Assembly: GCA_021324255.1 (NCBI GenBank)
Contig: JAJPJL010000085.1
Span: 1-46,968 of the forward strand
Origin: Bacillota bacterium
Lineage (GTDB): Bacteria > Sysuimicrobiota > Sysuimicrobiia > Sysuimicrobiales > Segetimicrobiaceae
Direction of reading: 5' to 3'
DNA length: 46,968 bases
Shown here in pieces: positions 15,654 to 45,016 of this stretch (positions are counted from its first letter, which is position 1; each line of letters begins with the position of its first letter). A program made the position numbers and the translations under genes. The notes under the pieces are model-generated. The model did no database searches. It worked only from the letters and a program-made list of their open reading frames with translations, and had not been told where the DNA came from.

Positions 15654-17807
15654 TCAGCGGCCGCCTGGCCGCTGCGCCGGGGTCTCGGGCACGACGTCAA
15701 GCGGTCCCACGACATCCAGGACCTCCACGTGCGAGCGTGAGGCGTCGCGGGTGCATCGGAGCGTGGCGCGCGATGCGCCGACGCGGAGGTTGCGGATCTC
15801 CACCCAATCCAACCACGCCGGCAGCGCGGGCGCGACGTACAGCCGTTGATGAGGCGCATCGGCACGGAGGCCAAGCAGCACGTGCACGAACGCAAACGTG
15901 CTCCCGGCTGCCCATCCCTGCGGGATGTTGGCGCCCAAGTACTGCACCGGAAACCCCAAGCTGTTGCGTGCCTGCCCGCCAAGGAGCTCTGGAAGCCGAT
16001 AGCGCTGAAACACGGCGGCCGCATCGAGGATGCCCCGCGTGATCCGGGCGGCCGCATCGACGTCGCCGTAGCGGCGGCATCCCGCGGCGATCAACAGGTT
16101 GTCGTGCGGCCAAACCGCTCCCCGCTGATATGCGAACGGATTGAAGGCCGGATGGGCGGCGCTCAGCGTGCGGATCCCCCACCCGCTCCACATGTCCTCC
16201 GCCAACAAACGCGCAATGACGCGCGGAGCACGGTCCGCCGGCACGATCCCCGACCACAAGCAATGCCCCGTGTTGCTGACGACGCTCGTGATGGGCGCCT
16301 TACGTGAGTCCAGTCCAAACGCGTAGATGCCTTCGTCCTCCAGCCAAAACGCCTCGTTGAACCGCGCCCGGAGCGTCTCGGCTTCCTTGCGCAGGCGGTC
16401 CGCGTCGGCGCTACGCGCGAGCCCGTCGTAGAGCGCCGCCATGCGCAGCTTGGCGTCGTACACGTAGCCCTGCAGTTCGCACAGGGCCACCGGAGGCTCC
16501 ACGGGCCGGCCGTCAGCGTACACGGTACCGTCGCCCGAGTCCTTCCATCCTTGATGCTTGATCCCTCGTGGGGATCGCGTGCGGTACTCTTGGAACCCGT
16601 CCCCGTCCCGGTCGCCGTACCGGTCGATCCAGCGCATGCATCGCTCGGCCACCGGAAGATACGCCTCCAGGACGTCGTGGCCGCCCGTCCACATATACGT
16701 CTCGTGAAGCAGGATCGGGTACAAGATCGTCGCGTCGGCGCTCCCATAGTAGGGCGTGTGGGGAATCTGACCGAACCGCGCCAACTCGCCCGTCCTGAGC
16801 TCGTGGAGGATCTTCCCGGGATCGGCGTCCCGATAGTCGTCGGAGCCTTCGGCTTGATAGGCGGCGAGGGCCCCGAGCGCCCCGAGGGCGAACCCCCGGT
16901 GAAGCGGTAGGGTTTGAAGCCCGGAAATGAGAGCGTCTCGGCCGAAGAGGGCGACGAACCACGGCACCCCGGCCGACAGGACGCACGGCTCATCGGGCGC
17001 GCCCGCGTCGAGGAGCAGGGAAATGAGATCGTCGACGGACCGCCCGAGCGTGTGGGTCAGCGCGTCATCGCTCGTCCTGGTATCCGCGAACACGCCGCGC
17101 CAGCGCTGGATGAATCCCTCCCGTTCGGCAACCGACGCATGGCTGCAGGCGGGGGGACCGGGATACACGACCCCGTCGAGTTCCGGGGTGAGATGAGCGC
17201 ACACGTGCCAAGATTCACCCGGATCCAGCACGAGGTCGAACAGAACCGCATGACCCCGCCGGCGGGCGCGGCTCGAGGTCCGGGTGAATTGACAGTGAAA
17301 CCGCGCCGCGTACGTGTCCCGCGCGTACTCGCAACTGAACCGCTGGTCTCCCTCGTGCCACGATGTTCGGACAGACCGGGGAACACGCACGTAGTGGCTC
17401 CGAACCTCGAACAGGTCGGCGAAGTCCGTGCCCAACTCGAGCTCGAACGTCAGGTGAACGGGCCGTCCATGATAGTTGACGAGGTCGAAGTCCTCGTGCA
17501 CGCCCCCGACGATGCTCCGTTTGACCGTGAACCCGAGGACGTGCTTGGGGATCGGCTCGTCGGCACTCAGGAGCGCGGGGTTCGTGAACTCGAACCGAAC
17601 CGCCGTATACGTGAGGGGGGAGGAACTCACGAGCTTCCACGTCCGCCCGTTGATCCGGTAGCGGTAGTGAGACAAGAACCGAACATCGTGACTGAACAGG
17701 CCGTGTTCGACCGTGCGGCGGATACAGCCGTCCAGCCCGCTGACCATGAAGCTGCGCCCGCAGTTGATCGTGGCAATGTTCGGGCCCACCTTGATCTCGC
17801 TCAGCAT
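15654..17807 (-). CDS. Amylo-alpha-1,6-glucosidase family protein (GDE_N_bis + GDE_C; bacterial/archaeal glycogen-debranching-enzyme-like)
   Basis: MLSEIKVGPNIATINCGRSFMVSGLDG… is the GDE_N_bis N-terminus. The central and C-terminal (alpha/alpha)6-barrel is present (…GKILHELRTGELARFGQIPHTPYYGSADATILYPILLHETYMW…, …NTGHCLWSGI…, FNPFAYQRGAVWPHDN). The ATG at 17807 matches the homolog N-terminus; the track's 18206 start adds 133 aa of low-complexity sequence. Confidence 0.85.
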   Translation of the reverse strand: MLSEIKVGPNIATINCGRSFMVSGLDGCIRRTVEHGLFSHDVRFLSHYRYRINGRTWKLVSSSPLTYTAVRFEFTNPALLSADEPIPKHVLGFTVKRSIVGGVHEDFDLVNYHGRPVHLTFELELGTDFADLFEVRSHYVRVPRSVRTSWHEGDQRFSCEYARDTYAARFHCQFTRTSSRARRRGHAVLFDLVLDPGESWHVCAHLTPELDGVVYPGPPACSHASVAEREGFIQRWRGVFADTRTSDDALTHTLGRSVDDLISLLLDAGAPDEPCVLSAGVPWFVALFGRDALISGLQTLPLHRGFALGALGALAAYQAEGSDDYRDADPGKILHELRTGELARFGQIPHTPYYGSADATILYPILLHETYMWTGGHDVLEAYLPVAERCMRWIDRYGDRDGDGFQEYRTRSPRGIKHQGWKDSGDGTVYADGRPVEPPVALCELQGYVYDAKLRMAALYDGLARSADADRLRKEAETLRARFNEAFWLEDEGIYAFGLDSRKAPITSVVSNTGHCLWSGIVPADRAPRVIARLLAEDMWSGWGIRTLSAAHPAFNPFAYQRGAVWPHDNLLIAAGCRRYGDVDAAARITRGILDAAAVFQRYRLPELLGGQARNSLGFPVQYLGANIPQGWAAGSTFAFVHVLLGLRADAPHQRLYVAPALPAWLDWVEIRNLRVGASRATLRCTRDASRSHVEVLDVVGPLDVVPETPAQRPGGR

Positions 17808-17815
17808 GGCCCGGA

Positions 17816-18184
17816 TCACCGGACGAGCGCCGCGTCCAAGACGCGCTCGTAGATCGACTCGTACGCATCCGCCATCCGGGCCGCGGAGAACCGCACGGCC
17901 ACGTGCGCGCGGCAGCGCCGGCGGTCGGTGCGGGGCACGTCGGCCACCGCCGCGATCATCTCGGCATACGCCACATGGTCGCGCACGCTGGGGTCCAAGC
18001 GGAGCCCGCGGGTACAACAAGGAATCAGCCGCGCTGAGGTGTTGGAATCGCCGCTCGCGAAGAGCGTCACCTCGTGGCCGCGACGCACGAGCTCCTCGGT
18101 CACGCCATCCACAACACGCTCCGTGCCCCCATAGAGCCTCGGTGGAACCGATTCGTACAAGGGCGCTACCTGTGCGATCCGCAT
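17816..18184 (-). CDS. Glycosyltransferase family 4 remnant (N-terminal ~65 aa fused to C-terminal ~50 aa); probable internally deleted pseudogene
   Basis: MRIAQVAPLYESVPPRLYGGTERVVDGVTEELVRRGHEVTLFASGDSNTSARLIPC is a GT4 N-terminus. The C-terminus (…RFSAARMADAYESIYERVL) is the typical GT4 C-terminal helix. The roughly 250-aa catalytic middle is missing from this 122-aa ORF. Confidence 0.5.
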   Translation of the reverse strand: MRIAQVAPLYESVPPRLYGGTERVVDGVTEELVRRGHEVTLFASGDSNTSARLIPCCTRGLRLDPSVRDHVAYAEMIAAVADVPRTDRRRCRAHVAVRFSAARMADAYESIYERVLDAALVR

Positions 18185-18385
18185 CTCGCGAGTATCTCCT
18201 CTCCAAAACACTGGGACAGGGCCCCGCCCCGTCCCAGCGCCATCCGCACCTGACATCGCGCGCCCGCTCCGATGAGGCATTCCGGCCTCGTCCCGGACCG
18301 TGCGCGGTCAGATGTATGCTCGCCTCTCCACGTACAGTATACTTCAGGCCTCAGCGCCGCGCTCCGCGGGTTTCCGCAACCGGGG

Positions 18386-19405: not shown

Positions 19406-20467
19406 GTGTCTTCTGCGATTCCACAACCGGTCCTTGCGCGGCTCACGCGCGCCGCCATCTTTCTGGTCGTGACGGTGAACCCGGGCCCGGACCATCGTGC
19501 CGCCGTGCGGGCGTTGTGTGGAGATCTGTCCGCTCTCCTACGCGCCGTGGGATTCCGTGACCTCGAGGGCCACCTGTCCTGCGTCATGGCGTTTGGCTCC
19601 GACGCCTGGGACCGGCTGTTCGGGCCGCCGCGGCCGAAAGCGCTCCATCCGTTCCGAGAGATCCGCGGCCGGCATCATGCCGTCTCCACGCCGGGGGATA
19701 TTCTGTTCCACATCCGCGCCGCGCGCATGGACCTCTGCTTCGAGCTGGCGATGCAGATCATGGCCCGGCTCGGCTCCGCCGTGTCCACGACGGACGAAGT
19801 CCATGGCTTCACGTACTTCGACGACCGCGATTTGATCGGGTTCGTCGATGGGACGGAGAACCCCGCGGAGCAGGCGGCGATTGACGCCGCCATCATCGGC
19901 GACGAGGATCCGGCGTTCGCCGGTGGCAGCTACGTGGTCGTACAGAAGTATCTGCACGACCTGCAGGGGTGGAATGCGCTGCCCATCGAGGAGCAAGAAC
20001 GCATCATCGGTCGCACCAAGCTGTCCAACATCGAGCTGGACGATGCCGTGAAACCCACCTCGGCACACAACGAGTTGACGACGATCGTGGAAGACGGGGA
20101 GCAGCTGGAGATCGTCCGTGACAACATGCCGTTCGGGGACGTGGGGAAGGGCGAGTTCGGCACGTATTTCATCGGCTATGCCCGGTCCCCTCACCGGATC
20201 GAGCAGATGCTCCTGAACATGTTCGTCGGCCGGCCGCCGGGGAATTACGACCGGCTGCTCGACTTCAGCCGCGCGGTGACCGGCACGCTGTTTTTCGCGC
20301 CGTCGGCAACGTTCCTGGAGACCGTGGCAGCCGGGGACGCGGCGCCGGCGGTCGCCGGCCCCCCGGTTGACGGCGCGCCGGGCACGCCCGCCGACGAGGC
20401 ACGAGCGGCGTCGCGTGATGGTTCGCTCGGCATTGGTTCATTGAAAGGAGACCGCGAGCATGACTAA
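19406..20467 (+). CDS. Dyp-type peroxidase with a C-terminal encapsulin cargo-loading peptide
   Basis: DyP signatures (…AAIFLVVTV…, GFVDGTENP, …FGTYFIGYARSP…). The C-terminal tail …DGSLGIGSLKGDREHD matches the family-1 encapsulin targeting-peptide consensus (SxGIGSLKG). Confidence 0.9.
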   Translation: MSSAIPQPVLARLTRAAIFLVVTVNPGPDHRAAVRALCGDLSALLRAVGFRDLEGHLSCVMAFGSDAWDRLFGPPRPKALHPFREIRGRHHAVSTPGDILFHIRAARMDLCFELAMQIMARLGSAVSTTDEVHGFTYFDDRDLIGFVDGTENPAEQAAIDAAIIGDEDPAFAGGSYVVVQKYLHDLQGWNALPIEEQERIIGRTKLSNIELDDAVKPTSAHNELTTIVEDGEQLEIVRDNMPFGDVGKGEFGTYFIGYARSPHRIEQMLLNMFVGRPPGNYDRLLDFSRAVTGTLFFAPSATFLETVAAGDAAPAVAGPPVDGAPGTPADEARAASRDGSLGIGSLKGDREHD

Positions 20468-21266
20468 TCTTCACCGAGAACTCGCTCCTATCTCGGACCT
20501 GGCATGGGCGCAGATCGAGGAGGAGGCGTCCCGCACCCTCAAGCGCCACCTGGCGGCGCGGCGCGTCGTGGACGTGCAGGGCCCGAAGGGCGTCGATTTC
20601 TCGGCCATCGGTACCGGCCATCTCCGGCCGCTCGAGACGCCGGGCGAAGGGATCCATGCCGCGCAACGCGAGGTGAAGGCGCTCGCCGAGTTGCGGGTCC
20701 CCTTCGAACTCGACCGTCAGGCGATCGATGACGTGGAACGCGGCGCCAGCGATTCGGACTGGCAGCCGTTGAAGGAAGCGGCGCGCAAGATCGCCTTCGC
20801 CGAGGATCGGGCCGTCTTTGAGGGGTACGCGCCGGCGGGGATCTCAGGCATCCGTCAGGGAACCAGCCATCCGGTGCTGACCCTCCCGGCCGACGTGAAG
20901 GACTATCCCGACGCCGTGGCCCGGGCGGTCACGCAATTGCGCCTCGCCGGCGTCAACGGGCCCTATGCTCTTCTGCTCAGCACAGATGCCTACACCGCCG
21001 TGAGCGGAGGCAGCGATGATGGATACCCGGTCCTGCGGCACGTCGCGCGTCTCGTGGACGGGGAGATCATCTGGGCCCCGGCCATCTCCGGCGGCGTGGT
21101 CCTCACGACTCGCGGCGGCGACTTCGCGTTGCACATCGGCCAGGACATCTCGATCGGGTATCTCGCCCATACCGATGCCGCCGTGCGACTGTACCTACAG
21201 GAGACGTTCACGTTCCTACAGTTGACCGCGGAAGCCGCGGTGGTGCTGACGCCCCCGGGCCGGTAA
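20460..21266 (+). CDS. Family 1 encapsulin nanocompartment shell protein (linocin M18-like, HK97 fold)
   Basis: MTNLHRELAPISDLAWAQIEEEASRTLKRHLAARRVVDVQGP… and …VLTTRGGDFALHIGQDISIGYLAHTDAAVRLYLQETFTF… align along their full length to M. tuberculosis Rv0798c and T. maritima encapsulin. The start overlaps the DyP stop (ATGA). Confidence 0.9.
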   Translation: MTNLHRELAPISDLAWAQIEEEASRTLKRHLAARRVVDVQGPKGVDFSAIGTGHLRPLETPGEGIHAAQREVKALAELRVPFELDRQAIDDVERGASDSDWQPLKEAARKIAFAEDRAVFEGYAPAGISGIRQGTSHPVLTLPADVKDYPDAVARAVTQLRLAGVNGPYALLLSTDAYTAVSGGSDDGYPVLRHVARLVDGEIIWAPAISGGVVLTTRGGDFALHIGQDISIGYLAHTDAAVRLYLQETFTFLQLTAEAAVVLTPPGR

Positions 21267-25685: not shown

Positions 25686-25925
25686 CGTGCCTCCTACCGC
25701 ATCGCGAAGTCGCGAGTGCAAGATACGGAGCGCGCCCGGGGGGCTCCTCTCCGGGCGGCGTCGCATACGATCGCCGGCGCCGGCTCACCATGCGACACCG
25801 ACAACGCGCGTGCCGCTGTGACGCGTAATCGCTGACTGCGACCGCCGGCGAGGCGAAGCCGGGAGTGTGGACATCCGTTCGCCTTGCCAGGCACCCGGAC
25901 GCCCGATATAGTGGCGCCATCCGCC

Positions 25926-26990
25926 ATGCGTACCCGCTCGCTCCGGGCATTTCGCGTGCTCGTGGGGTCTGCGTTCGTGGTCGTCGTCGCGATGATGGTG
26001 TGGACGGCGCGACCGCATCCCCCCGTCTCTGTCCACAAAGCCCGGCCCGCACCGTCCACGGAACCGCGCCCGCCCCAAGGTCTCGTTCCGGATCCCATTG
26101 ACGGGCAGCTCGTCCCTTACCAACTCGCGGCGCGTCGGCCGATCGCGGTCATCATCGACAACTTCACGCAGGCGCGCCCGCAGTGGGGACTGTCGGCCGC
26201 ATCGCGCGTGTACGAGGCCATCACCGAGGGCGGCATCACGCGGTATCTGGCAGTCTTCGCGGAGAAGGACGCCGACCGCATCGGCCCGGTCCGGTCGGTA
26301 CGCACCCAGTTTCTCGACTACGCCCTCGAGATCGACGCCGGCGTCGCGCACGTCGGCGGCAACGCCGACGCGCTGGCGCTCATCCAGCAGCTGCCGATCG
26401 TGAACCTGGATGAGTTCCGGTACGCCGCCGCGTTTCGCCGGATCCCCGCGCCGCACGTGGCATTCGAGCATACGGTCTTTACGTCGACCGCGGCGCTGCG
26501 CGGCGTGATCGATCAACGCGTCGGGGTGGAAGGCGTCGCCGCCGCGCCGGAGCGCTGGAAGGACGACGCCCCGGCGGCGCGCCGGCCGGCCGCCGGCAGC
26601 GTGTCGATCGCGTTTTCGTTGCCGGAGTATGCGGTCAAGTGGACCTACGAGCCGGCGGCCAACGACTACGCTCGCACCCTGGGCGGCGTTCCGGACACGG
26701 ACGCCGCCACCGGCCAGGCGCTCACGGCGAAGTCGATCGCCATTGCCGTGGTTTCCCGCACCCACGGGCGGACGGTCATCGGCGAGGACACCTGGACGTT
26801 CGCCGACATCGGCTCCGGCCCGGCGTGGGTCCTGCAGGACGGCGTCGTGGTCCCGGGCACCTGGCGCAAGCAGTCCCGCGCGGACCGCCTCCGTTTCTTC
26901 GACGGCGCGGGACGTGAGATCGCCTTCGACCGCGGGCCCCAGTGGGTGGAAATCATCCCGCCCGAAGTCTCCCCGACCTTCTCGCCATAG
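25926..26990 (+). CDS. DUF3048 domain-containing (YerB-like) putative lipoprotein/secreted protein
   Basis: N-terminal TM/signal (LRAFRVLVGSAFVVVVAMMVW), then the DUF3048 core (RPIAVIIDNFTQARPQWGLSAASRVYEAITEGGITRYLAVF…IGPVRSVRTQFLDYA…AHVGGN). The start could be 25884 or 25926. Confidence 0.75.
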   Translation: MRTRSLRAFRVLVGSAFVVVVAMMVWTARPHPPVSVHKARPAPSTEPRPPQGLVPDPIDGQLVPYQLAARRPIAVIIDNFTQARPQWGLSAASRVYEAITEGGITRYLAVFAEKDADRIGPVRSVRTQFLDYALEIDAGVAHVGGNADALALIQQLPIVNLDEFRYAAAFRRIPAPHVAFEHTVFTSTAALRGVIDQRVGVEGVAAAPERWKDDAPAARRPAAGSVSIAFSLPEYAVKWTYEPAANDYARTLGGVPDTDAATGQALTAKSIAIAVVSRTHGRTVIGEDTWTFADIGSGPAWVLQDGVVVPGTWRKQSRADRLRFFDGAGREIAFDRGPQWVEIIPPEVSPTFSP

Positions 26991-27098
26991 CGATCGCCGC
27001 CGCGCCAGCGGCAGGACGCCCCGCCGGCTCGTCGAACCACACGGCGCGCGAAGCCGTGCGGCGCCACGGCAGCGGTTGAAGGACCCTACTCGCCTCTC

Positions 27099-28040
27099 AT
27101 GCGACCGTATATCATCCGCCGCATCATCCTGATCATCCCGCTAATCTGGGGCGTGGTCACGAGCGTCTTTCTCGTCATCCATCTCCTGCCGGGCGATCCC
27201 GCGGCCGTCCTCCTCGGTCCGTTCGCCACGAGCGACCGCGAGGTCGCGTTACGCCATATGTGGGGCTTGGATCAACCCCTTGTCGTCCAGTACATTCACT
27301 ACCTCGGCAACGTTGCCACCGGCAACTTCGGCACGTCGTTTCTCACCGGCCAGTCGGCCGCGTACCAGATCGTGACGTCCCTGCCCTACACGGTCATCCT
27401 GGGCCTATCCGCGCTGGCGATCGCCGTCGGCGTGGGCATTCCCCTCGGCGTGACCGCCGCCGTCCGCAGCGAGACCGTAGCGGACCGCCTCTCCCTGTTC
27501 CTCTCGCTGGTCCTGATCTCCGCCCCGAACTTCCTCGTCGGGATCGTGCTGCTCATCGTCTTCGCGGGACGCCTGGGGTGGGTACCGTCGATCGGCGCCG
27601 GCACGTTTGCCCAACCCGGCTCGATCGTGTCGCACACCATCTTGCCGGCCGTGGCGCTCTCGGCCGGTCTCCTTGCCTATCTCGCGCGGATCACCCGCAC
27701 GACGCTCATGTCGGTGTTCCGGGACGACTACATCCGGACCGCCCGGGCCAAGGGGCTGGCGGGCGCCTCCGTCGTCTTCCGCCACGCGTTGCGCAACGCC
27801 ATGCTGCCTGTGCTGAGCATCCTCGGGCTCGCCGTCGGGGACCTCGTGGGCGGGACCGCCGTCATCGAGACCGTGTTCGCGCGTCCCGGCATCGGGAGCC
27901 TCCTCGTCAACTCGGTCACGGGCCGCGACTACGTGCAGGTCCAGGCGTGCGTCATCATCCTCGCCGCGTCGTTTGTCGTGACAAACCTCGTGACGGACCT
28001 CTGTTACGCGGCCGTGGACCCGCGGATCCAGTATCAATAG
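27099..28040 (+). CDS. ABC transporter permease, OppB/DppB family
   Basis: MRPYIIRRIILIIPLIWGVVTSVFLVIHLLPGDPAAV… N-terminus. EAA-type loop (YIRTARAKGLAGASVVFRHALRNAMLPVLS). C-terminus …DPRIQYQ. Confidence 0.9.
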   Translation: MRPYIIRRIILIIPLIWGVVTSVFLVIHLLPGDPAAVLLGPFATSDREVALRHMWGLDQPLVVQYIHYLGNVATGNFGTSFLTGQSAAYQIVTSLPYTVILGLSALAIAVGVGIPLGVTAAVRSETVADRLSLFLSLVLISAPNFLVGIVLLIVFAGRLGWVPSIGAGTFAQPGSIVSHTILPAVALSAGLLAYLARITRTTLMSVFRDDYIRTARAKGLAGASVVFRHALRNAMLPVLSILGLAVGDLVGGTAVIETVFARPGIGSLLVNSVTGRDYVQVQACVIILAASFVVTNLVTDLCYAAVDPRIQYQ

Positions 28041-28044
28041 CCAC

Positions 28045-28947
28045 ATGGTCCAAGCGCTGCCGTCCGTCGCCTCCGCCCCGGCCGCCCCGGCTGCGCGATC
28101 GCGGTGGCGCGCGTTCGGCAGGAGCCTGCGGCGCAACATCCCGGCGCTCCTGTCGCTGGCGTTCATCGTGCTCCTCGTGATCATCGCGGTGTTCGCGCCG
28201 GTCCTGGCGCCCTATAGCCCGTCCCTCGTGTCCGCGGCGGCGTCCTTCCGTCCGCCCACCTGGCAGCATCCGTTCGGCACCGACCTGTTCGGCCGGGACA
28301 TCCTGTCGCGCGTGATCTACGGCACGCGCCTCTCCCTGCTGGTCGGCGTGCTCGCGGTCGCGATCGGGGCCACCGGCGGGACGCTCCTCGGCATGATGGC
28401 GGGCATCAGCACGCGGCGTGTGGACCAGGCCATCATGCGGTGCATCGACGTGGCGCTGGCGTTCCCGTTCATCCTGCTCGCGATCCTGATCCTGGCGTTC
28501 TTCGGGTCGGGCGTCCAAAATGTGATGCTGGCCGTGGGGATCGCCTACGTCCCCCGGTTCGCGCGGATCACCCACGCGTCCACGCTGTCGTTGAGGGAGA
28601 TGGAGTTTGTCTCCGCGGCGCGGGCGAGCGGCGCGGGGATCGGGCGCGTGATGCTGCGGCACATCCTGCCGAACCTCTTTCAGGTCCTGACGGTGTACGG
28701 GACGTTCTCGATCCCGATCGCCATCTTGATCGAGGCGGCGCTCGACTACCTGGGATTGGGGGTGCTCCCCCCCACGCCGACGTGGGGGGCCATCATCAAC
28801 GAGGGGCGGCAGTCGCTGATGATCGCGCCCTGGGAGTCCGTGCTCCCGGGCGTCGTCATCATGTTGGCGGTGCTGGCGTTCAACCTGTTCGGCGAGGCCG
28901 TGGCGAGCTTCCTCGACCCCAAGGCCAACATCGGCCTCCAGCGATAA
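28045..28947 (+). CDS. ABC transporter permease, OppC/DppC family
   Basis: N-terminal RNIPALLSLAFIVLLVIIAVFAPVLAPYSP, HPFGTDLFGRDILSRVIYGTRLSL, and EAA loop (FVSAARASGAGIGRVMLRHILPN). Confidence 0.9.
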   Translation: MVQALPSVASAPAAPAARSRWRAFGRSLRRNIPALLSLAFIVLLVIIAVFAPVLAPYSPSLVSAAASFRPPTWQHPFGTDLFGRDILSRVIYGTRLSLLVGVLAVAIGATGGTLLGMMAGISTRRVDQAIMRCIDVALAFPFILLAILILAFFGSGVQNVMLAVGIAYVPRFARITHASTLSLREMEFVSAARASGAGIGRVMLRHILPNLFQVLTVYGTFSIPIAILIEAALDYLGLGVLPPTPTWGAIINEGRQSLMIAPWESVLPGVVIMLAVLAFNLFGEAVASFLDPKANIGLQR

Positions 28948-35959: not shown

Positions 35960-37585
35960 TTGGTGAGAAGCGGTCGCAAGACACGCTCGATGTGGTACTT
36001 CTTCCTCACAGTAGCGCTCGCGCTCGCGATCCCCGCCCTCTATGTCAACGCGGCCGCCACGGTGGCCCACGCGCAGACGTCAGGCAACGGCGGCGCCGGC
36101 GGCGCGGGTGGCGTCGGCGGTAGCGGCAACGGGCTTCCCGGCAGTCCCGGGACCACGGTCGTTGGCGGCGGCACGGGCGGGGCTGGCGGTGCCGCTGGAA
36201 CGACCGGCGGTGGCGGCGGTGCGGGCGGCGCCGGCGGCAGCGGCGGCAGCAACAATGCGAACACCTCCGGTAACGGCGGCAACGGCGGCAACGGCGGGAA
36301 CGGCAGCAATTCCAACAGTGACGGCGGCGCGGGTGGCGCGGGTGGCGCCACCTCCGGCGGTAACGGAGGTGCCGGTGGTGCCGGCGGCTCGAACAACGGG
36401 AACGGCGGTGCTGGTGGCAAGGGCGGGAACGGCGGCAGCTTCAACGTCAACGACTCCGGGAACGGCGGCGCGGGTGGTGCCGGCGGCAACGCGTCGAACA
36501 GCGCGGGGGCAACCCCCGCGGGCGGAAACGGTAACGGTGGCAACGGCGGCGCAGGCGGCGCCAACCATGGCGGCAACGGCGGTGCGGGCGGCGCCGGCGG
36601 TAATGGAAACGGCAACGGCGGTGCGGGCGGTGGCGGTGGGAACGGCGGCAGCAACGACACGAGCGCATCCGGCAACGGTGGTGCGGGCGGCGCCGGCGGA
36701 GCGAGCGGTATCAACAACGGTGACGGCGGCGCAGGCGGCGCCGGCGGTGCAGGCACCGGCGGCGCGGGTGGCACGGGCGGCAAGGGAGGCAACAACAACG
36801 GTGACGGCGGCGCCGGCGGCAACGGCGGCGCCGGCGGCACGGGCAACAGCGTTTCGTCCGGCAACGGCGGCGCGGGTGGCGCAGGCGGCGCCGGCGGGAA
36901 CGGGAACGGGACCGGCGGAACCGGCGGCGCGGGCGGAACAGCCGCGGGCGCGGCCGGCGGGGCCGGCGGTAGCAACAACGGCAACGGCGGTGCGGGCGGC
37001 AACGGCGGCGCCGGCGGGAACCTGAATCTCGGCAACACGGGCGCCGGCGGTCTCGGCGGATCGGGCAACGGTGGTGCCGGCGGTAAGGGCGGTGCCGGCG
37101 GCAACAACAACGGGATGGGCGGTACCGGCGGGACCGGCACCAATACGGGCGGAACCGGCGGCAGCAACAACGGCAACGGCGGCGCCGGCGGCAACGGCGG
37201 CGCGGGCGGCAACGCCAACGTCAACGGCTCCGGGAACGGCGGTACGGGCGGCAACGGCGGCGCGGGCGGCAACAACAACGGCACGGGCGGCAACGGATCC
37301 GGAACCGCGGCCGGCGGCGCAGGCGGTAGCAACAACGGCAACGGCGGTGCGGGCGGCAACGGCGGCGCCGGCGGCAACAGCAACACCAACGGTTCCGGCA
37401 ACGGGGGCGCGGGCGGCAACGGGGGCGCGGGCGGCAGCAGCAACGGTAACGGCTCGGGCACAAGCGGGAACGGCAACGGCGGCGCCGGAGGCAACGGTGG
37501 AGCCGGCGGGAACAACAACGGCGGCGGCTCCGGCAACGGCGGGGCCGGCGGGGCCGGCGGCTCAGGCGGGAACAACAACATCTAA
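35960..37585 (+). CDS. Secreted glycine/asparagine-rich repeat protein (PGRS-like; ~500 aa of GNGGAGG/GGAGGNNN repeats)
   Basis: AAGGAGG Shine-Dalgarno 5-8 nt before the TTG/GTG start. Signal peptide (M)VRSGRKTRSMWYFFLTVALALAIPALYVNAAATVAHA/QT. The repeats are reminiscent of mycobacterial PGRS domains (…GNGGAGGAGGSNNGNGGAGGNGGAGGN…). The 513-aa Pro-rich ORF on the opposite strand is its antisense shadow. Confidence 0.65.
   Translation: MVRSGRKTRSMWYFFLTVALALAIPALYVNAAATVAHAQTSGNGGAGGAGGVGGSGNGLPGSPGTTVVGGGTGGAGGAAGTTGGGGGAGGAGGSGGSNNANTSGNGGNGGNGGNGSNSNSDGGAGGAGGATSGGNGGAGGAGGSNNGNGGAGGKGGNGGSFNVNDSGNGGAGGAGGNASNSAGATPAGGNGNGGNGGAGGANHGGNGGAGGAGGNGNGNGGAGGGGGNGGSNDTSASGNGGAGGAGGASGINNGDGGAGGAGGAGTGGAGGTGGKGGNNNGDGGAGGNGGAGGTGNSVSSGNGGAGGAGGAGGNGNGTGGTGGAGGTAAGAAGGAGGSNNGNGGAGGNGGAGGNLNLGNTGAGGLGGSGNGGAGGKGGAGGNNNGMGGTGGTGTNTGGTGGSNNGNGGAGGNGGAGGNANVNGSGNGGTGGNGGAGGNNNGTGGNGSGTAAGGAGGSNNGNGGAGGNGGAGGNSNTNGSGNGGAGGNGGAGGSSNGNGSGTSGNGNGGAGGNGGAGGNNNGGGSGNGGAGGAGGSGGNNNI
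36070..37570. repeat. Degenerate GGN-codon tandem repeats (GGC GGC GCC GGC GGC AAC …) underlying the Gly-rich CDS
   Basis: Nucleotide-level repetition of ggcggcgccggcggc / aacggcggcgcgggcggc units across ~1.5 kb. It is coding and has no spacer-repeat architecture, so it is not a CRISPR array. Confidence 0.5.
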
Positions 37586-38619: not shown

Positions 38620-40992
38620 TCAGCGAGGCGTGTGGGCCAGTCGGGTCTCGAGCGTCCGCCGCGCACGGGCCACGTCGTCGCGGAGCGCCGCGATGCCGGC
38701 GGCGCGGCCGGCGCCCTCGCCCGTCGCGCCGCCGGTCAACACCAACACCCACAGCAGCCTGTGCACGTCATCCACGCCGGCGACTCGGTACCGCGCAGCG
38801 GTCTGCGGCGGACGGCGGCCGACTTTGATCGTGAGCGCCGACTCGGGCAGCGCACGGAAGGCGTCCTCATCCGCCCAATCGTCGCCGATGTAGATCGGTT
38901 GAACGCGCATCGCCCAGGCGTCCCCAAACGTTTGCATCAAGATGCGCCGGACCGCGGCGCCCTTGTCCCACGCCACGTTGGGCCGCACTTCGAGGGCGTG
39001 GGCGCCGAGCTGGACGCCGATTTGCCCGGGCGCCGCCTGCCCGGTTTCCTCGAACACGACATCCCGGACCCGTTCGAGAAACGCGTGTGGCGTGCGCCGG
39101 TAGTGCACCGTGAGCGTCAGCCCCTTGTCCTGCAACCAGGCGCCGGGAATCTCACGCAGCCGGCGTGCAAGCCGCACGGCGCATGCTTCGATCGCCGGAC
39201 GCGCCCGCTCCGCGTCGGGCAGCACCCAGGTCGCGTCCCCATCCGTCATCTCCAATCCGTAGTTCCCGGCGTACACGAAGCCGTCGATTCCAATGCGCCC
39301 CGTCAAATCGTCGAGCGCGCGACCGCTGACGATGGCGACCAGGGTCGCGGGACGCTCCGCCAGCCGGAGCAGCGCGGTTCGGGCATCGGGGGGCAGGGAC
39401 ACCCGCGACGGATCGTCGTGGAATGGCGCCAGGGTCCCGTCGAAGTCCAGGAAGACGGCCAATGGGCGTCCGCTGCGCGATGTGTGCTCGACGGCCGCCG
39501 CCGCCTCGGCCTTGGGGCGGATGGCCGTGCCGGCGTGGAGCAGCCGGGACGCGGTCTCGAGGTGCTTGCCCATCCAGCGATACACGTCCTGCGCAAACAC
39601 GTGCCGCCGCAGGTGATCGAGCCGCTGCCGCCGCTCTTCCACGGGCATCGCAAGCGCCCGCGCCATCGCCGCGGCGCAACCGGCCGCGTCGTACGGATTG
39701 ATGGACACGCTGCCGGTGAGCTCGTCGTGCGCACCGGCGAACTCGCTGAGGAGCAGCACACCGCTCACATCCACCTGGCATGCCACGAATTCCTTGGCCA
39801 CGAGGTTCATGCCGTCCTGAATGGAACTGACGACGCACAGGTCCGCGAGCCGGTAGAGCGCGGCCATGCCGGCCGGTGGCAGCGGATCGGGCAGCGCGAT
39901 AATCGGAATCCAATCCGGCGTGCCGTGGGCCGCGTTGAGCCGCTCGATCCGCTCCTCGATCCGAGCCCGGAGATCGCGGTACACCTTGATCTGTCCCCGG
40001 CTCGCGGCGAGCTTTTGAATGAACACGACGCGGCCGCGGTATTCCGGCCACCGGGACAGCAATTGATCGATGCCGCGGAGCCGCTTGAGGATGCCCTTCG
40101 TGTAGTCGAGCCGATCCACGCTGAGCACGATCCGCCGCCCCTCGAGACCGAGCACGCGGCGGAACCCATCCATCCACCGCTCGGCCTGCGGCGACCGCGC
40201 AACCTCGTCGAGGGCCGCGGCGTCCACGCTGATCGGAAACGCCTCCACCACCGTCCGCCGCCCCGCGTACCAGACGGTGTTGCCGGACACGTGCGCCCCG
40301 AGATCGCGCCGCGCGCACTCGAGGAAGTGCTCGACGTGCCGATCGTGTTGAAACGTGAGGAGGTCGTTCGCCAGCAGGCCGTCGAGGAGCGCCACCCGCT
40401 CCGGGCAGACCCGAAACGCGTCCCACGCGGGCCACGGCACGTGCCAGAAATGCATGAGAAACAGATCCGGCCGAAGCTCCCGCAGCGCGCGCGGACACGT
40501 CGCCAGGTGGTAATCGTGCAGCCACACGACCGCGTCGCGAGGGGCCTCCGCGGCGACCGCCTCCGCGAACCGCCGGTTGACCGCCTGGTACGTCTCCCAG
40601 TACCGCGTCCGCACGCGGACTTGGTCCATGACCATGTGGCAGAGCGGCCACAAGACCTGGTTCGCATAGCCGTAATAGTAGCCGTCGACGTCCGGCCGGG
40701 AGAGCGCGATACGCTTGAGCGTGTAGCGCGGGTTGTCATCCGGCACCTGCACCCGGCCATCCGCGTCGGCGACCGCGAAGTCCGCGTCACCGTCGCCCCA
40801 TGCGATCCAGGTGCCCGAGACAGCCTGCATCACCGGGTCCAGGGCGGCCACCAGTCCCCCGGCGGGACGCTCCACGCTGATGCCTCCCGGGCCGGTTCGA
40901 TGCGCGTAAGGTTCGCGATTGCTGACGATCACCAGCTGGCGCCCTTTCAGCATGCCGTCGAGTTGCTCAAGGCGCCCTCGTGCGATGACCAT
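38620..40992 (-). CDS. otsA: Bifunctional trehalose-6-phosphate synthase (GT20, OtsA) / trehalose-6-phosphate phosphatase (HAD, OtsB) fusion
   Basis: N-terminal GT20 (RQLVIVSNREPY…, …GYANQVLWPLCH…, …VDRLDYTKGI…, LVAKEFVAC… (GT20 nucleotide-sugar-binding region)). The C-terminal ~270 aa is HAD trehalose-phosphatase (VFLDFDGTLAP… motif I, …GKG/ …IYIGDDWADEDAF motif IV). GGAGGTG at 6 nt before the ATG. 790 aa. Confidence 0.9.
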   Translation of the reverse strand: MVIARGRLEQLDGMLKGRQLVIVSNREPYAHRTGPGGISVERPAGGLVAALDPVMQAVSGTWIAWGDGDADFAVADADGRVQVPDDNPRYTLKRIALSRPDVDGYYYGYANQVLWPLCHMVMDQVRVRTRYWETYQAVNRRFAEAVAAEAPRDAVVWLHDYHLATCPRALRELRPDLFLMHFWHVPWPAWDAFRVCPERVALLDGLLANDLLTFQHDRHVEHFLECARRDLGAHVSGNTVWYAGRRTVVEAFPISVDAAALDEVARSPQAERWMDGFRRVLGLEGRRIVLSVDRLDYTKGILKRLRGIDQLLSRWPEYRGRVVFIQKLAASRGQIKVYRDLRARIEERIERLNAAHGTPDWIPIIALPDPLPPAGMAALYRLADLCVVSSIQDGMNLVAKEFVACQVDVSGVLLLSEFAGAHDELTGSVSINPYDAAGCAAAMARALAMPVEERRQRLDHLRRHVFAQDVYRWMGKHLETASRLLHAGTAIRPKAEAAAAVEHTSRSGRPLAVFLDFDGTLAPFHDDPSRVSLPPDARTALLRLAERPATLVAIVSGRALDDLTGRIGIDGFVYAGNYGLEMTDGDATWVLPDAERARPAIEACAVRLARRLREIPGAWLQDKGLTLTVHYRRTPHAFLERVRDVVFEETGQAAPGQIGVQLGAHALEVRPNVAWDKGAAVRRILMQTFGDAWAMRVQPIYIGDDWADEDAFRALPESALTIKVGRRPPQTAARYRVAGVDDVHRLLWVLVLTGGATGEGAGRAAGIAALRDDVARARRTLETRLAHTPR

Positions 40993-41046
40993 GCATCACA
41001 CCTCCGCCGCGCGGATGTCGCTCCGGACCCATGAGGCTCCATGCGC

Positions 41047-41083
41047 AAAACAAAACCCACCCGGAGAAGGTCTCCGGGTGGTT
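41047..41083 (-). terminator. Intrinsic terminator (9-bp stem CACCCGGAG/CTCCGGGTG, 5-nt loop, followed by GGUUUUGUUUUG) ~55 nt upstream of the otsA start; expression-platform terminator of the riboswitch leader
   Basis: On the minus strand: CACCCGGAGACCUUCUCCGGGUGGGUUUUGUUUUGC. This is a classic hairpin plus U-tract, rare in this GC-rich window. Confidence 0.6.
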
Positions 41084-41097
41084 CATGGCCCGGCTGG

Positions 41098-41240
41098 CCT
41101 TCTCTCGATGCCTACGGGGTTAGCTGACGGGCTCGGGCCGAGAGACTTGCCCTACCTGCGCGCACACACAGGCTGCGCCCCACGAACTTGGGTCCCCCGT
41201 TCCCCGAACGGTCCTCGGGGATTCGGCACATCGTGCGTTG
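41098..41240 (-). promoter_or_regulatory. ydaO/kimA-type cyclic-di-AMP riboswitch aptamer in the 5' leader of otsA-otsB
   Basis: The minus-strand RNA contains hallmark ydaO blocks in the right order: GCCGAAUCC…GGGGAAC…CGGGGGACCCAAG…GGUAGGGCAAGUC…CCCGAGCCCGUCAGCUAACCCCGUAGGCAUCGAGAGAAGG. Compare B. subtilis/T. tengcongensis GCCGAAUCC…GGGGGACCCAA…GGUAGGGCGAAA…CCCGACAGCUAACUCCGGAGGCAAU / …CGUAAGCGUUCGAGAGGAGG. It is followed by an intrinsic terminator and preceded by an AT-rich TACAAT -10-like element at ~41270. Confidence 0.6.
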
Positions 41241-41360
41241 CCGCGATGTCGCGACTCGATCTCGTTTCTATTGTAATATTTTCCCCGTTTCCCGGCGGAG
41301 TTTCACAAAGGTTTCGCGGCGTCCGCGCTCGGGCGCGCGTCCCGCGGGATCCGGCCGCGG

Positions 41361-42200
41361 TTATCGCGCCCGCACGTCGAGCGCGTCGCGCAGGGCGTCG
41401 CCGATGAAGAACACGGCGACCACGCTGAGGGTGACCACCGCGCCGGGCGCGATCACGAGCACCGGGTTGGAGGTGAGATAGCTCTCCGCCTGCGTCATCA
41501 GGTTGCCCCACGTCGGGATCTCCGGGGGCAGCCCGAATCCAAGAAAGTCGAGCGCGGCTTCCGCCAGCATCGCACCGCCCACGGCGAACGCCGCCTGCAC
41601 CAGGATGGGGGCCATGGCATTCGGTAAGATGTGCCGAAAGACCACGCGCCGCACACCGGCGCCGCCCGCCCGGGCCGCCTCCACGAACTCCCGCTCGCGC
41701 AGCGACAGATACTCCGCGCGCACGATGCGCGCCAAGCCCGTCCAGCCGAACAAGCCCAGGTAACCGACCATCAAGGCCACGGGCGCGCGTCCGGCGGTCC
41801 AGTTGAGCAGGATGAGAAGCAGAAAGATCGCCGGGAAGCTGAGCACGAGATCCACGAGGCGCATCACGGCGGCGTCCACGCGGCCGCCGAGATATCCCGC
41901 CAGGGACCCGAGCGTGACCCCGATCGCGCTTCCGACCAGCATCGCGGTCATGCCGACCAACAGGCTCACGCGCCCTCCATATAATAGCCGCGCCAGCTCG
42001 TCGCGGCCGAGATCGTCGGTGCCGAGCGGGTGGCGGGGGGTCGGCGCTTCGAGCGCGTGGTCCGGATCGAGCGCGGCGGGATTGTACGGCGTCAGGAGCG
42101 GCGCGAGCGCGGCCCCGCCCATGACGAGCGCGAGCGCAACGGCGCCCGCGACGGCCGCCCGATGCCGGCGGAAGCGCCCCCAGACGCGTGCGGCCATCAT
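41361..42200 (-). CDS. ABC transporter permease, OppC/DppC family (second opp-like locus)
   Basis: …AVAGAVALALVMGGAALAPLLTPYNP…HPLGTDDLGRDELARLLYGGRVSLLVG…. EAA loop FVEAARAGGAGVRRVVFRHILPN. Start chosen at ATGATG (42200). The track's TTG at 42281 would overlap the OppB stop by 32 nt. Confidence 0.85.
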   Translation of the reverse strand: MMAARVWGRFRRHRAAVAGAVALALVMGGAALAPLLTPYNPAALDPDHALEAPTPRHPLGTDDLGRDELARLLYGGRVSLLVGMTAMLVGSAIGVTLGSLAGYLGGRVDAAVMRLVDLVLSFPAIFLLLILLNWTAGRAPVALMVGYLGLFGWTGLARIVRAEYLSLREREFVEAARAGGAGVRRVVFRHILPNAMAPILVQAAFAVGGAMLAEAALDFLGFGLPPEIPTWGNLMTQAESYLTSNPVLVIAPGAVVTLSVVAVFFIGDALRDALDVRAR

Positions 42201-42249
42201 CGGCAACCGGCGCCGCCGGGCGCGAGCACGCGTGCCGCCTTCGTGAGTA

Positions 42250-43200
42250 TCATTGATATCGGATCCGCGGGTCGAGCGCAACGTACGCCAGGTCCGCCAT
42301 GAGATTGCCGGCGACCAGCAGCGCGGCGCTCATCATCAACCCCGCCATCTGGACGGGGTAGTCGCGATTGTTGAGCGCCTCCAGGAACAACCGTCCCATC
42401 CCCGGCCAGCCAAAGATCGATTCCGTGATCACCGCCCCGCCCACGAGCGCGTGCAGATCCAGCCCGATCAGCGTCGCGATCGGGATCAGGGCGTTGCGCA
42501 GCATGTGGCGCCGCCGCACGCGCGCCTCAGGCAAACCTTTCGCGCGTGCGGTGCGAACGTAATCCTGCGAGAGCACGTCCAGGAGGCTGCTCCGGAGGTA
42601 GCGGCTCCAGCTCGCAATGGAGCCGAGCCCCAGCACGAGAGCGGGCAGGACCAGGTGGCGCGCAAGGTCCGGCAGCGACGCGTTCCCGACCTCGTGCATC
42701 CCGGCCACCGGCAGGAGCCGCCAGCGGACCGCAAACAGGAGCTGCAGCATCAACCCAAACCAGAACGTCGGCATGGCCCAGGCGAAGAACGAGCCGAACG
42801 ACAGCGCGGTGTCGCCCCACGAGTACTTGTGCGTGGCGGCAAACGTGCCGAGCGGGATGGCCAGGGCGATCGCCAGGCCGAACGCGCTCAGCATCAAGGC
42901 CAAGGTAGCCGGGAGCCGCTCGCCGATCATCGCCAGCACCGGACGTCCCGTATAGTAGGAATCGCCCCACTGGCCCCGCAGCAAGGCGCCCGCCCAGACC
43001 ACGTAGCGCGCGTACCACGGACGGTCGAAGCCCAATTGATGCCGCAGGATCGCGATGCGCTCCGGCGTCACCTGCGGGTTGTGCATGTACACCGCGAGGG
43101 GCCCGCCGGGCGCGAGGTTCATGATCGCGTACCCGACCAGCGATACGAGCGCCAGGAGCGCCACAGCCTGCGCCGCCCGCTGCAGGACGTAGCGCGTCAT
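42250..43200 (-). CDS. ABC transporter permease, OppB/DppB family (second opp-like locus)
   Basis: MTRYVLQRAAQAVALLALVSLVGYAIMNLAPGGP… N-terminus. EAA loop YVRTARAKGLPEARVRRRHMLRNALIPIAT. C-terminus …DPRIRYQ. Confidence 0.9.
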   Translation of the reverse strand: MTRYVLQRAAQAVALLALVSLVGYAIMNLAPGGPLAVYMHNPQVTPERIAILRHQLGFDRPWYARYVVWAGALLRGQWGDSYYTGRPVLAMIGERLPATLALMLSAFGLAIALAIPLGTFAATHKYSWGDTALSFGSFFAWAMPTFWFGLMLQLLFAVRWRLLPVAGMHEVGNASLPDLARHLVLPALVLGLGSIASWSRYLRSSLLDVLSQDYVRTARAKGLPEARVRRRHMLRNALIPIATLIGLDLHALVGGAVITESIFGWPGMGRLFLEALNNRDYPVQMAGLMMSAALLVAGNLMADLAYVALDPRIRYQ

Positions 43201-43235
43201 CGGCCCCTACGGCCGGCGGACGGCGGCGGGACGCC

Positions 43236-44834
43236 TCACCGCGTGCTCCACGTCTCCGGCGGCGTCGTGCCGAACGTCGTGGCAACGTACCCGTGGACGT
43301 TCGCCGCGACGGCATCGGTGTTCACGTACCAGAACAGAAAGATCACGGGCACGTCGCGCTGTTCGAGCGCTTGGATGCGCCGGTAGATCTCCAGGCGCCG
43401 CGCCGGGTCCACGGCAGCGTCGGCCTGGTCGAGCAGGGCGTCCATCTCGGGATTGCGGTACCGCTCCGCGTTCTCGCCGGCGCCGTTGGCGTCGGCCGGA
43501 ATGTAGGCGGAGCTCCAGTTGATGCGGTTCTCGGGAAAGACACCCTGACTCCACGAAAAGATCAGCGCCGCGTCTCTGCCGTTCCACTGCGGACCGTTCT
43601 GTCCAAACAGCGCCGCCGAACTGACCGCATGGGTGTCGGTCGCCACGCCGGCGGCGCGCCACGCCTGTGCGATGATCTGCATGGCCTGGACGAAGTAGAG
43701 CCGGGTCGAGACCGTCCACAGCGGCACCTCGAGGCGCGCGCCGTCCTTCGTGAACGACCCGTCCGCGCCCCGCACAAATCCCGCCGCGCGAAGCAGCCCG
43801 CGCGCCCGTTCCGGATCGTAGGGGCGCGGCGCGAGACCGCGGTCCGCCCAGGGGCCGTCCGGGACCATGTCGCTCACCGCCGGGGCGGCCTGCCCCCGCA
43901 TGACGTCCTTGATGATCGGCGCCTTGGGCGTCGCGAAATCCAGCGCCTGCCGCACCCGCACGTCGCGCAGAAATTGATACTCGTCCAGCTGGACGAGCGC
44001 GTAGGTCGACGTGAGATACCGCTGGAGCGTGATACCCGGGAACCGGCGGACTTCGTCGAGCCGCGCCGGCGGCACGCCCTGGAGCACGCTCAGGTCGCCC
44101 GCGCGCAGAAGGTTGACCTGGGTGTTCTGGTCGGGCACGATGCGGACGACGATCTGGCGCAGCTTCGGCCTGGGCCCCCAGTAATAGGGATTCGCCCGCA
44201 ATGTCACATGATCGTCGGCGACGAACTCCGACACCGCGAACGGACCCGTCCCCACCGGTCTCCGGTTGAACGGTGAGCGGTTGATCTCGTCCGCCGAGAG
44301 CCCCGCAAAGAGGTGCCGCGGGACAATGGGTGCCCCGGCCACCTGCTCCCGAAACGGCGCGTACGGCGCCTTGAGATGAAATACGACCGTGGCCGGCGTC
44401 GGCGTCGCCACGCTCGCGATCCGGTCGAAGCCCGTCGCGTAGCTGATGTGTACGCCGGTGTCGGTGGCCAGCTGCCACGTGTACTTGACATCCGCCGACG
44501 TGAGCGGCTCCCCATCGGACCACCGGACGCCCGGGCGCAGCGTGTAGGTCCACGTCAACCCGTCGGCGCTGACGTGCTCGCCGGCGGCCAGCGCCGGCTC
44601 CCAACGCCCGCGCTCATCCACGCGATAGAGGCTGTCGAAGACGAACCCGTACACTTGCTGGCTGGCAAGCAGGCTGTGCAGGTATGGATTGAGATTGTCC
44701 GGGTTGTCCGAGACGACGAGGGCAAACGTGCCCGGCGCCGGAACGGCCGCGGCGAACCGCGGCCCGACCAGGGCCAGCAAGCCGCACCCACCCAACAAGA
44801 TGAGCGCCTGCCGTATCACCTTCCGATGACGCAT
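43236..44834 (-). CDS. ABC transporter substrate-binding protein, family 5 (OppA/DppA-like)
   Basis: Signal peptide MRHRKVIRQALILLGGCGLLALVGPRFAAA. SBP_bac_5 fold (…LRPGVRWSDGEPLTSADVKYTW…, …RANPYYWG…, …YVNTDAVAANVHGY…). Start at ATG 44834; an in-frame GTG at 44915 exists. Confidence 0.85.
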   Translation of the reverse strand: MRHRKVIRQALILLGGCGLLALVGPRFAAAVPAPGTFALVVSDNPDNLNPYLHSLLASQQVYGFVFDSLYRVDERGRWEPALAAGEHVSADGLTWTYTLRPGVRWSDGEPLTSADVKYTWQLATDTGVHISYATGFDRIASVATPTPATVVFHLKAPYAPFREQVAGAPIVPRHLFAGLSADEINRSPFNRRPVGTGPFAVSEFVADDHVTLRANPYYWGPRPKLRQIVVRIVPDQNTQVNLLRAGDLSVLQGVPPARLDEVRRFPGITLQRYLTSTYALVQLDEYQFLRDVRVRQALDFATPKAPIIKDVMRGQAAPAVSDMVPDGPWADRGLAPRPYDPERARGLLRAAGFVRGADGSFTKDGARLEVPLWTVSTRLYFVQAMQIIAQAWRAAGVATDTHAVSSAALFGQNGPQWNGRDAALIFSWSQGVFPENRINWSSAYIPADANGAGENAERYRNPEMDALLDQADAAVDPARRLEIYRRIQALEQRDVPVIFLFWYVNTDAVAANVHGYVATTFGTTPPETWSTR

Positions 44835-45016
44835 CGGGACCTCGCGCCGGACGCGATCACCGCGCAATGATTCAACCATTCGAGGGCCCGGCCGCGCGGG
44901 CCTTTCCGGCGGCACCCGCGCCGCTTGGCCGGCGCTCGCGCTTGCTCCCGGGCGCCGCCGCCGCGTAAGCTACTGTACGTGAACGCGGGGGTTGCGCCGC
45001 GGTGCGTCCAAGGAGG

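Follow-up and report, generated by a model that had tools for sequence, protein, structure and literature searches.

A probable c-di-AMP riboswitch and intrinsic terminator in the leader of a fused otsAB trehalose gene from an uncultured GC-rich bacterium

The finding that emerges from this work is that a fused gene for trehalose synthesis, otsAB, is preceded by a full-length c-di-AMP (ydaO-type) riboswitch aptamer, which is followed by an intrinsic terminator. The gene is found on a contig of 46,968 nucleotides from an uncultured bacterium (JAJPJL010000085.1); this whole stretch, which has a GC content of 69%, is referred to here as the window. The aptamer is a clear member of the RF00379 class and is predicted to bind c-di-AMP. 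Together with the terminator it very probably forms a functional ydaO-class transcriptional OFF switch that acts on a monocistronic otsAB. The direction and size of the regulation and its physiological trigger are likewise predictions. The riboswitch class is well known; the trehalose-synthesis target would extend the c-di-AMP osmotic regulon in a coherent way, with modest novelty.

The otsAB gene is located at positions 38620–40992 on the minus strand of the window and encodes a bifunctional trehalose-6-phosphate synthase/phosphatase of 790 amino acids, as determined with Pfam and NCBIfam. The protein has a Glyco_transf_20 domain (PF00982, residues 19–480, E 7e-122) and a Trehalose_PPase domain (PF02358, residues 514–725, E 5e-34). 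It scores 650.1 bits against the NCBIfam equivalog for bifunctional OtsA/OtsB, NF011071, which has a cutoff of 634. The assignment of a fused otsA-otsB in the initial annotation of this DNA is borne out by the presence of both the GT20 synthase and the HAD-IIB phosphatase domains and by the score above the equivalog cutoff. Glucosylglycerol-phosphate synthase (GgpS), which also belongs to GT20, was considered as another identity for the protein and was ruled out with an NCBIfam score of 306 against a cutoff of 569. The start codon of otsAB is an ATG at 40992, with a GGAGG ribosome binding site at 41005–41001. On the 3′ side there are a convergent 172-amino acid ORF of unknown function and a tRNA, and otsAB therefore appears to be monocistronic. 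Pfam identifies opp-like ABC importer genes 5′ of otsAB on this strand (SBP_bac_5, OppB-like and OppC-like, 41361–44915). The gap between this operon and otsAB had been put at 330 nt, and this value needs to be corrected; the intergenic length from the OppC-like stop codon (41363–41361) to 40992 is 368 nt. In the set of species-representative genomes the closest relative is 'Bacillota bacterium Centralia_MAG_233', which has an OtsAB that is 91% identical.

The main evidence for the aptamer is its Rfam score. The match to RF00379 (ydaO/yuaA) runs from 41238 to 41095 on the minus strand and has a score of 92.9 bits compared to a gathering score of 38, with an E-value of 1.1e-20. The alignment extends over model positions 1–134 of 134, no non-canonical pairs were flagged, and it was the sole riboswitch match when the whole 47-kb window was compared with Rfam 15 at gathering thresholds. 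A minus-strand match above the gathering threshold was the check proposed in the initial annotation; this match lies far above it and well beyond chance. The four ydaO/kimA blocks quoted in that annotation, GCCGAAUCC, CGGGGGACCCAAG, GGUAGGGC and CCCGUCAGCUAACCCCGUAGGCAUCGAGAGAAGG, were all found on the minus strand. The P1 helix is formed by UGCC (41228–41225) and GGCA (41112–41109). A short leader hairpin region, GAGUCGCGACAUCGCGGCA, lies directly 5′ of the aptamer at 41239–41257 on the minus strand and is conserved in two related loci, L001 and L002. The aptamer and otsAB share a strand; 102 nt separate the aptamer from the ATG, and the terminator lies within this interval.

Comparison with related leaders is consistent with this assignment. 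The window and seven distinct homologous leader sequences give eight distinct leaders. When their aptamers were aligned, 97.6% of the pair cells held standard pairs, compared to 37–52% with the partners slid by 1–3 columns. Compensatory double changes were observed at four pairs, for example C-G to U-A twice in one hairpin; these sequences are few and related, so that the alignment is supporting evidence and not an independent proof. All of the consensus helices, that is P1, the long-range helices and the four hairpins, are available in the window aptamer and are maintained in its relatives. In an unconstrained fold of the whole leader (z-score −1.8) the aptamer structure did not appear, as is to be expected of an RNA that has a pseudoknot and is stabilised by its ligand, and the result was not used as evidence either way.

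A pseudoknot between a hairpin loop and a purine-rich 3′ tail is class-defining for ydaO riboswitches, as is selective binding of c-di-AMP with two molecules per RNA. In the window the hairpin loop CUCUCG (41139–41144, minus strand) is the 5′ partner and is complementary to CGAGAG in the tail. The tail, CGAGAGAAGG (41098–41107, minus strand), is the predicted switching sequence and can pair in two ways. Its CGAGAG segment (41107–41102) is one half of the pseudoknot, and its GAGAAGG segment (41104–41098) forms helix 1 of a putative antiterminator. Nucleotides 41104–41102 are common to both pairings, so the pseudoknot and antiterminator helix 1 are mutually exclusive. The loop–tail duplex of the window has an energy of −10.1 kcal/mol compared to −5.2 kcal/mol for shuffled tails, and 10 of 500 shuffles were as good. 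The potential to form the pseudoknot, with 6–9 bp, was found in all eight leaders, and in L005 and L006 the loop and the tail lengthen together.

The terminator is located at 41047–41081 on the minus strand and starts 13 nt after the end of the aptamer. It consists of a hairpin with the stem CCACCCGGAGA / UCUCCGGGUGG (41081–41057; 11 pairs, eight of them G-C) and the loop CCU, followed by the U-tract GUUUUGUUUU (41056–41047). The hairpin energy is −20.9 kcal/mol, and a consensus scan found this to be the only terminator-like site in 40700–41600. Between the end of the U-tract and the ATG at 40992 there are 54 nt, in agreement with the textbook hairpin and U-tract described initially at about 55 nt before otsA. 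At the equivalent position, 11–15 nt past the Rfam aptamer end, a GC-rich hairpin of 11–13 pairs, with an energy of −17 to −25 kcal/mol and followed by a U-rich tail, is present in all of the leaders that have the aptamer, including L001, L002, L003, L005, L006, L008 and L090. The outer stem sequences vary from lineage to lineage and the complementarity is retained.

The putative antiterminator uses two helices. In helix 1 the tail pairs with CCUUCUC (41070–41064), which spans the terminator loop and the proximal 3′ arm. In helix 2 the linker CCGGG (41089–41093, minus strand) pairs with CCCGG (41078–41074) in the terminator 5′ arm, and a CCGG(G/A) motif is conserved 3′ of every aptamer in the eight leaders. 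The duplex of tail plus linker with the terminator has an energy of −24.3 kcal/mol in the window compared to a mean of −14.4 kcal/mol for shuffled tails, with 9 of 500 shuffles as good. In six of the eight leaders at most 23 of 500 shuffles were as good as the natural sequence. The tails of L005 and L006 are G-rich, and for these two the antiterminator duplex was no better than the shuffled controls (201 and 53 of 500 as good). When the distal 3′ arm of the terminator was blocked, as a mimic of the nascent transcript, the same two-helix antiterminator was obtained in every one of the eight leaders with energies from −17.2 to −22.0 kcal/mol. Sequestering the first nine nucleotides of the tail as well, which mimics the ligand-bound pseudoknot, weakened it to between −8.2 and −17.5 kcal/mol, a loss of about 5–10 kcal/mol. 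For the window the corresponding values are −19.2 kcal/mol as long as the distal 3′ arm is blocked and −9.3 kcal/mol with the tail sequestered. The mutually exclusive pairing of terminator and antiterminator that had been named as a further check was thus found by folding in all eight distinct leaders. There is also partial covariation between the tail and the terminator loop, with GAGAAGG:CCUUCUC in the window and GAGAGC:GCUCUC in L008. The minimum-energy fold of the full-length leader is the terminator in seven of the eight, and the ON state would therefore need kinetic trapping. A kinetically trapped ON state is usual among transcriptional riboswitches.

Judged by computation, the leader appears to fit a transcription-terminating OFF riboswitch. 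The transcription-attenuating OFF architecture proposed in the initial annotation agrees with the equal placement of the terminator in 8/8 leaders, with the exclusive pairing of tail and terminator in 8/8, and with the retention of the unit where the opp-like genes are absent. When c-di-AMP is bound, the tail segment CGAGAG would be held in the pseudoknot with the loop CUCUCG. With the tail docked, the 11-bp hairpin and its U-tract would form and RNA polymerase would terminate 54 nt before the otsAB start codon. At low c-di-AMP, the free tail and the CCGGG linker would pair with CCCGG ... CCUUCUC as these segments leave the polymerase. The antiterminator would then cover the 5′ arm, the loop and the proximal 3′ arm, the terminator would be blocked, and read-through into otsAB would allow trehalose to be made. 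Bacteria at low c-di-AMP also de-repress K+ and osmolyte uptake. c-di-AMP restrains K+ and compatible-solute accumulation, and elevated c-di-AMP signals the absence of osmotic distress (PMC9337991; PMC6108528; PMC10243994). An otsAB gene that would be ON at low c-di-AMP agrees with this accepted logic. There are no diadenylate cyclase or c-di-AMP phosphodiesterase genes within the window, and c-di-AMP signalling in the organism is thus an assumption.

Conservation of the unit was assessed in loci that encode OtsAB relatives at graded identity, each of which was scanned with Rfam. The aptamer, the terminator and otsAB occur together in nine further loci, representing seven distinct leader sequences, with OtsAB proteins that are 58–91% identical to that of the window. 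The RF00379 aptamer precedes otsAB at full length and in the same orientation in L001 (91% OtsAB identity), L002 (79%), L003 (73%), L005 (62%), L006/L007 (61%), L008/L009 (58%) and L090 (58%), and the homologous leaders score 62.9–93.5 bits against RF00379. The unit is found in four different neighbourhoods. In the window, L001, L002 and L003 the order is opp-like operon, aptamer and otsAB. In L005–L007 the unit is divergent from rsmI, with otsAB, DUF5752 and TreT_GT1 genes downstream. In L008/L009 the aptamer is followed by a yihY/brkB-like membrane-protein gene that overlaps otsAB, and in L090 the flanks are unrelated. Retention of the linkage through several rearrangements argues for function rather than chance adjacency.

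The association of the riboswitch with otsAB is clade-restricted and patchy. L091/L092 (57% and 56% OtsAB identity) and L093/L094 (53% and 51%) lack the aptamer. A covariance model built in this analysis did not find it in 80 metagenome OtsA/OtsAB loci of 31–46% identity, and 30 of these distant loci were scanned again with Rfam and likewise lacked it. On the basis of these 80 loci, a linkage general to otsA was rejected. L004, which encodes an OtsAB that is 70% identical and has the same downstream synteny, has a colinear, decayed aptamer remnant at L004:328–460 (+), with otsAB at L004:503. The remnant scores 10.9 bits with the covariance model built here and has no Rfam match. Its core is mutated: CGGAG-A stands in place of CGGGGGA and CGCGGACC in place of CAGCUAACC. 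The terminator, too, is degraded and lacks a U-tract. The locus would seem to be losing its riboswitch; a change of aptamer specificity is much less probable.

Where does the transcript that passes through the riboswitch originate? The initial annotation pointed to an AT-rich, −10-like TACAAT on the otsAB strand. The hexamer is present at 41275–41270 and is an uncertain candidate for a −10 box: a −35 partner is missing, the promoter scan did not call it, and L001 has CTTAGT in its place. A rather unlikely reading is that the riboswitch is real and has no promoter of its own in the window, so that it forms a conditional operon boundary at the opp-like/otsAB junction. High c-di-AMP would then end the opp transcript at the riboswitch terminator, and low c-di-AMP would let it continue into otsAB. 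Several observations point in this direction: the scan found no terminator-like site in the stretch from the OppC-like stop (41361) to the aptamer and no sigma-70-like promoter in 40700–41600, and the window shares the order of opp-like genes, aptamer and otsAB with L001, L002 and L003. However, the consensus behind the promoter scan is of the E. coli type and may be unsuited to this host, and better candidates are found 5′ of other aptamers. In L003, where the opp synteny is the same, GTGACA-17-GATAAT is found just 5′ of the aptamer, and TGGACT-16-TATAAT, TATAAT and TGgTATAAT are present in L005, L006 and L008. L005, L006, L008 and L090 have no same-strand gene upstream, and in these a good −10 box or −35/−10 pair lies 3–27 nt before the aptamer, which indicates that the unit can be self-standing. 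In the lineage of the window, a weak or non-canonical promoter could drive transcription, or the transcript could arise by read-through from the opp-like operon. Under either origin otsAB would be gated by the riboswitch terminator.

Two further explanations were weighed against the preferred reading of a c-di-AMP OFF switch, and both are very improbable. The ligand of the aptamer could be something other than c-di-AMP, for example ATP or a related dinucleotide. ATP was once proposed as the ydaO ligand, and the single-stranded junction after GGGG is CGCAG in the window aptamer compared to UGAAU in the Rfam consensus. All of the remaining strongly conserved blocks agree with the consensus, however, and an otsAB target fits the c-di-AMP osmotic regulon. 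The class members tested by Nelson et al. in 2013 reportedly bind c-di-AMP with far higher affinity than ATP. It is equally hard to credit that the hairpin at 41081–41047 is a constitutive terminator of the opp operon behind a non-functional or decaying aptamer without a role in otsAB regulation. Past the opp-like genes no terminator-like site comes before this hairpin, and riboswitch decay is known in this gene family from the 10.9-bit remnant of L004, but the window aptamer, at 92.9 bits and with every helix intact, is unlike that remnant, the complementarity of tail and terminator is conserved and partly covaries between the window and L008, and the aptamer and terminator also precede otsAB in loci that have no upstream opp operon, so that the terminator is not merely that of the opp operon.

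The c-di-AMP switch proposed for otsAB resembles the B. subtilis ydaO (kimA) and B. thuringiensis kdp riboswitches in its aptamer family, helices, pseudoknot and position in the 5′ leader. Those switches also have an intrinsic terminator after the aptamer and OFF logic, as predicted for the otsAB leader, and in ydaO-class riboswitches binding of c-di-AMP leads to premature termination (PMC9960051; PMC10117811). The difference is in the target and the host. The ydaO (kimA) and kdp targets are K+ or amino-acid transporters, whereas otsAB encodes a cytoplasmic enzyme that synthesises a sugar acting as a compatible solute, in an uncultured bacterium with a GC-rich window. The high-GC versions known from actinobacteria, upstream of rpfA in Streptomyces and nlpC in Corynebacterium, have the same aptamer class. 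The rpfA riboswitch acts by premature termination (PMC10117811) and the nlpC switch has been proposed to act on translation (PMC9960051). Both control peptidoglycan hydrolases, in contrast to otsAB, which is an osmolyte-synthesis gene with a clear intrinsic terminator.

A closer parallel in terms of function is ablA of Dehalobacter sp. CF, which encodes lysine-2,3-aminomutase and is preceded by a tandem of Na+ and c-di-AMP riboswitches described by White et al. in 2022 (PMC9337991). The c-di-AMP riboswitch of this tandem terminates transcription of an osmolyte-synthesis gene, its antiterminator is made of P1 and pseudoknot nucleotides, and the design was validated in vitro (PMC9337991). The otsAB leader is predicted to share with it a c-di-AMP OFF switch and a terminator on osmolyte synthesis rather than uptake, with an antiterminator that draws on the 3′ nucleotides of the aptamer. 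The otsAB leader has a single riboswitch and not a tandem, and the osmolyte is trehalose rather than β-lysine or N-ε-acetyl-β-lysine. Unlike that of ablA, the predicted otsAB antiterminator also uses the conserved CCGGG linker and reaches into the terminator loop and 3′ arm.

Osmoprotectant-related genes were reportedly mentioned in general terms by Nelson et al. in 2013. Targets described for RF00379 include, in Bacillales and Clostridia, transporters of K+, osmoprotectants and amino acids and, in actinobacteria, cell-wall hydrolases (PMC9960051; PMC10117811), together with the one osmolyte-synthesis gene ablA (PMC9337991). A link between an RF00379 riboswitch and trehalose synthesis was not found in the searchable full-text literature, which is consistent with the initial description of the target as rarely described; the gene tables of Nelson 2013 or Block 2010 could list otsA, and a listing in Gao & Serganov 2014 is also possible.

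c-di-AMP is best known for restraining the uptake of K+ and compatible solutes. Evidence that it gates compatible-solute synthesis is sparse, and the tandem riboswitch of ablA was the one case found. If a conserved c-di-AMP riboswitch does act on otsAB, trehalose, a major protectant against desiccation, heat and osmotic stress, would join the regulon. A wider reading, which we offer tentatively, is that trehalose synthesis may be a direct and previously undescribed output of c-di-AMP in an uncultured GC-rich clade, one relative of which is labelled Bacillota. The riboswitch and terminator would be a conserved unit that has moved with otsAB between contexts, and in the lineage of the window c-di-AMP would decide whether the opp-like transcript extends into otsAB. 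The otsAB leader offers a simple one-gene system in which to see how c-di-AMP levels follow osmotic state in GC-rich environmental bacteria that have been little studied. It also provides genome annotation with a regulatory context for otsAB in these metagenome-assembled genomes.

Some observations were made on other loci and on the rest of the window. An nhaA-I RNA (RF03057) was found in the 5′ leader of a GT20 otsA in two distant metagenome loci, at L045:2673–2735 (+) and L041:2077–2134 (+), with scores of 45.7 and 49.4 bits compared to a gathering score of 37. The nhaA-I RNAs are a cation-responsive riboswitch class, and these cases thus place a second, unrelated ion- or osmotic-related riboswitch class ahead of trehalose genes in other lineages. 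Should the wider reading given above hold, trehalose synthesis would come repeatedly, through the two classes, under riboswitches that sense ions or osmotic state.

Clusters of otsAB or otsA with DUF5752 and a TreT_GT1-type glycosyltransferase are present at L005:5306–7187, L006:5297–7178, L008:5296–7174 and L045:4418–5065, and GH57, GlgB or TreS-Mak genes are also found in some of them. DUF5752, which is uncharacterised, seems to accompany trehalose genes consistently. In the same region of the window as otsAB, at 15654–18206 on the minus strand, there is a gene for an 850-amino acid glycoside hydrolase with GDE_N_bis and MGH1-like (mannosylglycerate-hydrolase-like) domains, which is possibly related to compatible solutes or glycogen. 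The window has two opp-like clusters, both without adjacent ATPase genes. One is the SBP_bac_5, OppB and OppC cluster at 41361–44915 (−), and the other, at 25884–28947 (+), has a DUF3048 protein, OppB and OppC.

A 541-amino acid ORF at 35960–37585 (+) has a signal-peptide-like N-terminus followed almost entirely by Gly/Asn/Ala repeats (GNGGAGGAGG units). It has no Pfam match and is reminiscent of mycobacterial PGRS repeats; its DNA has a GC content of 75–80%, a strong purine skew and an equally long ORF on the opposite strand. At 19406–21266 (+) a gene for a DyP-type peroxidase is followed by an overlapping gene for an encapsulin shell protein (Linocin_M18), the classic cargo and shell pair of an encapsulin nanocompartment.
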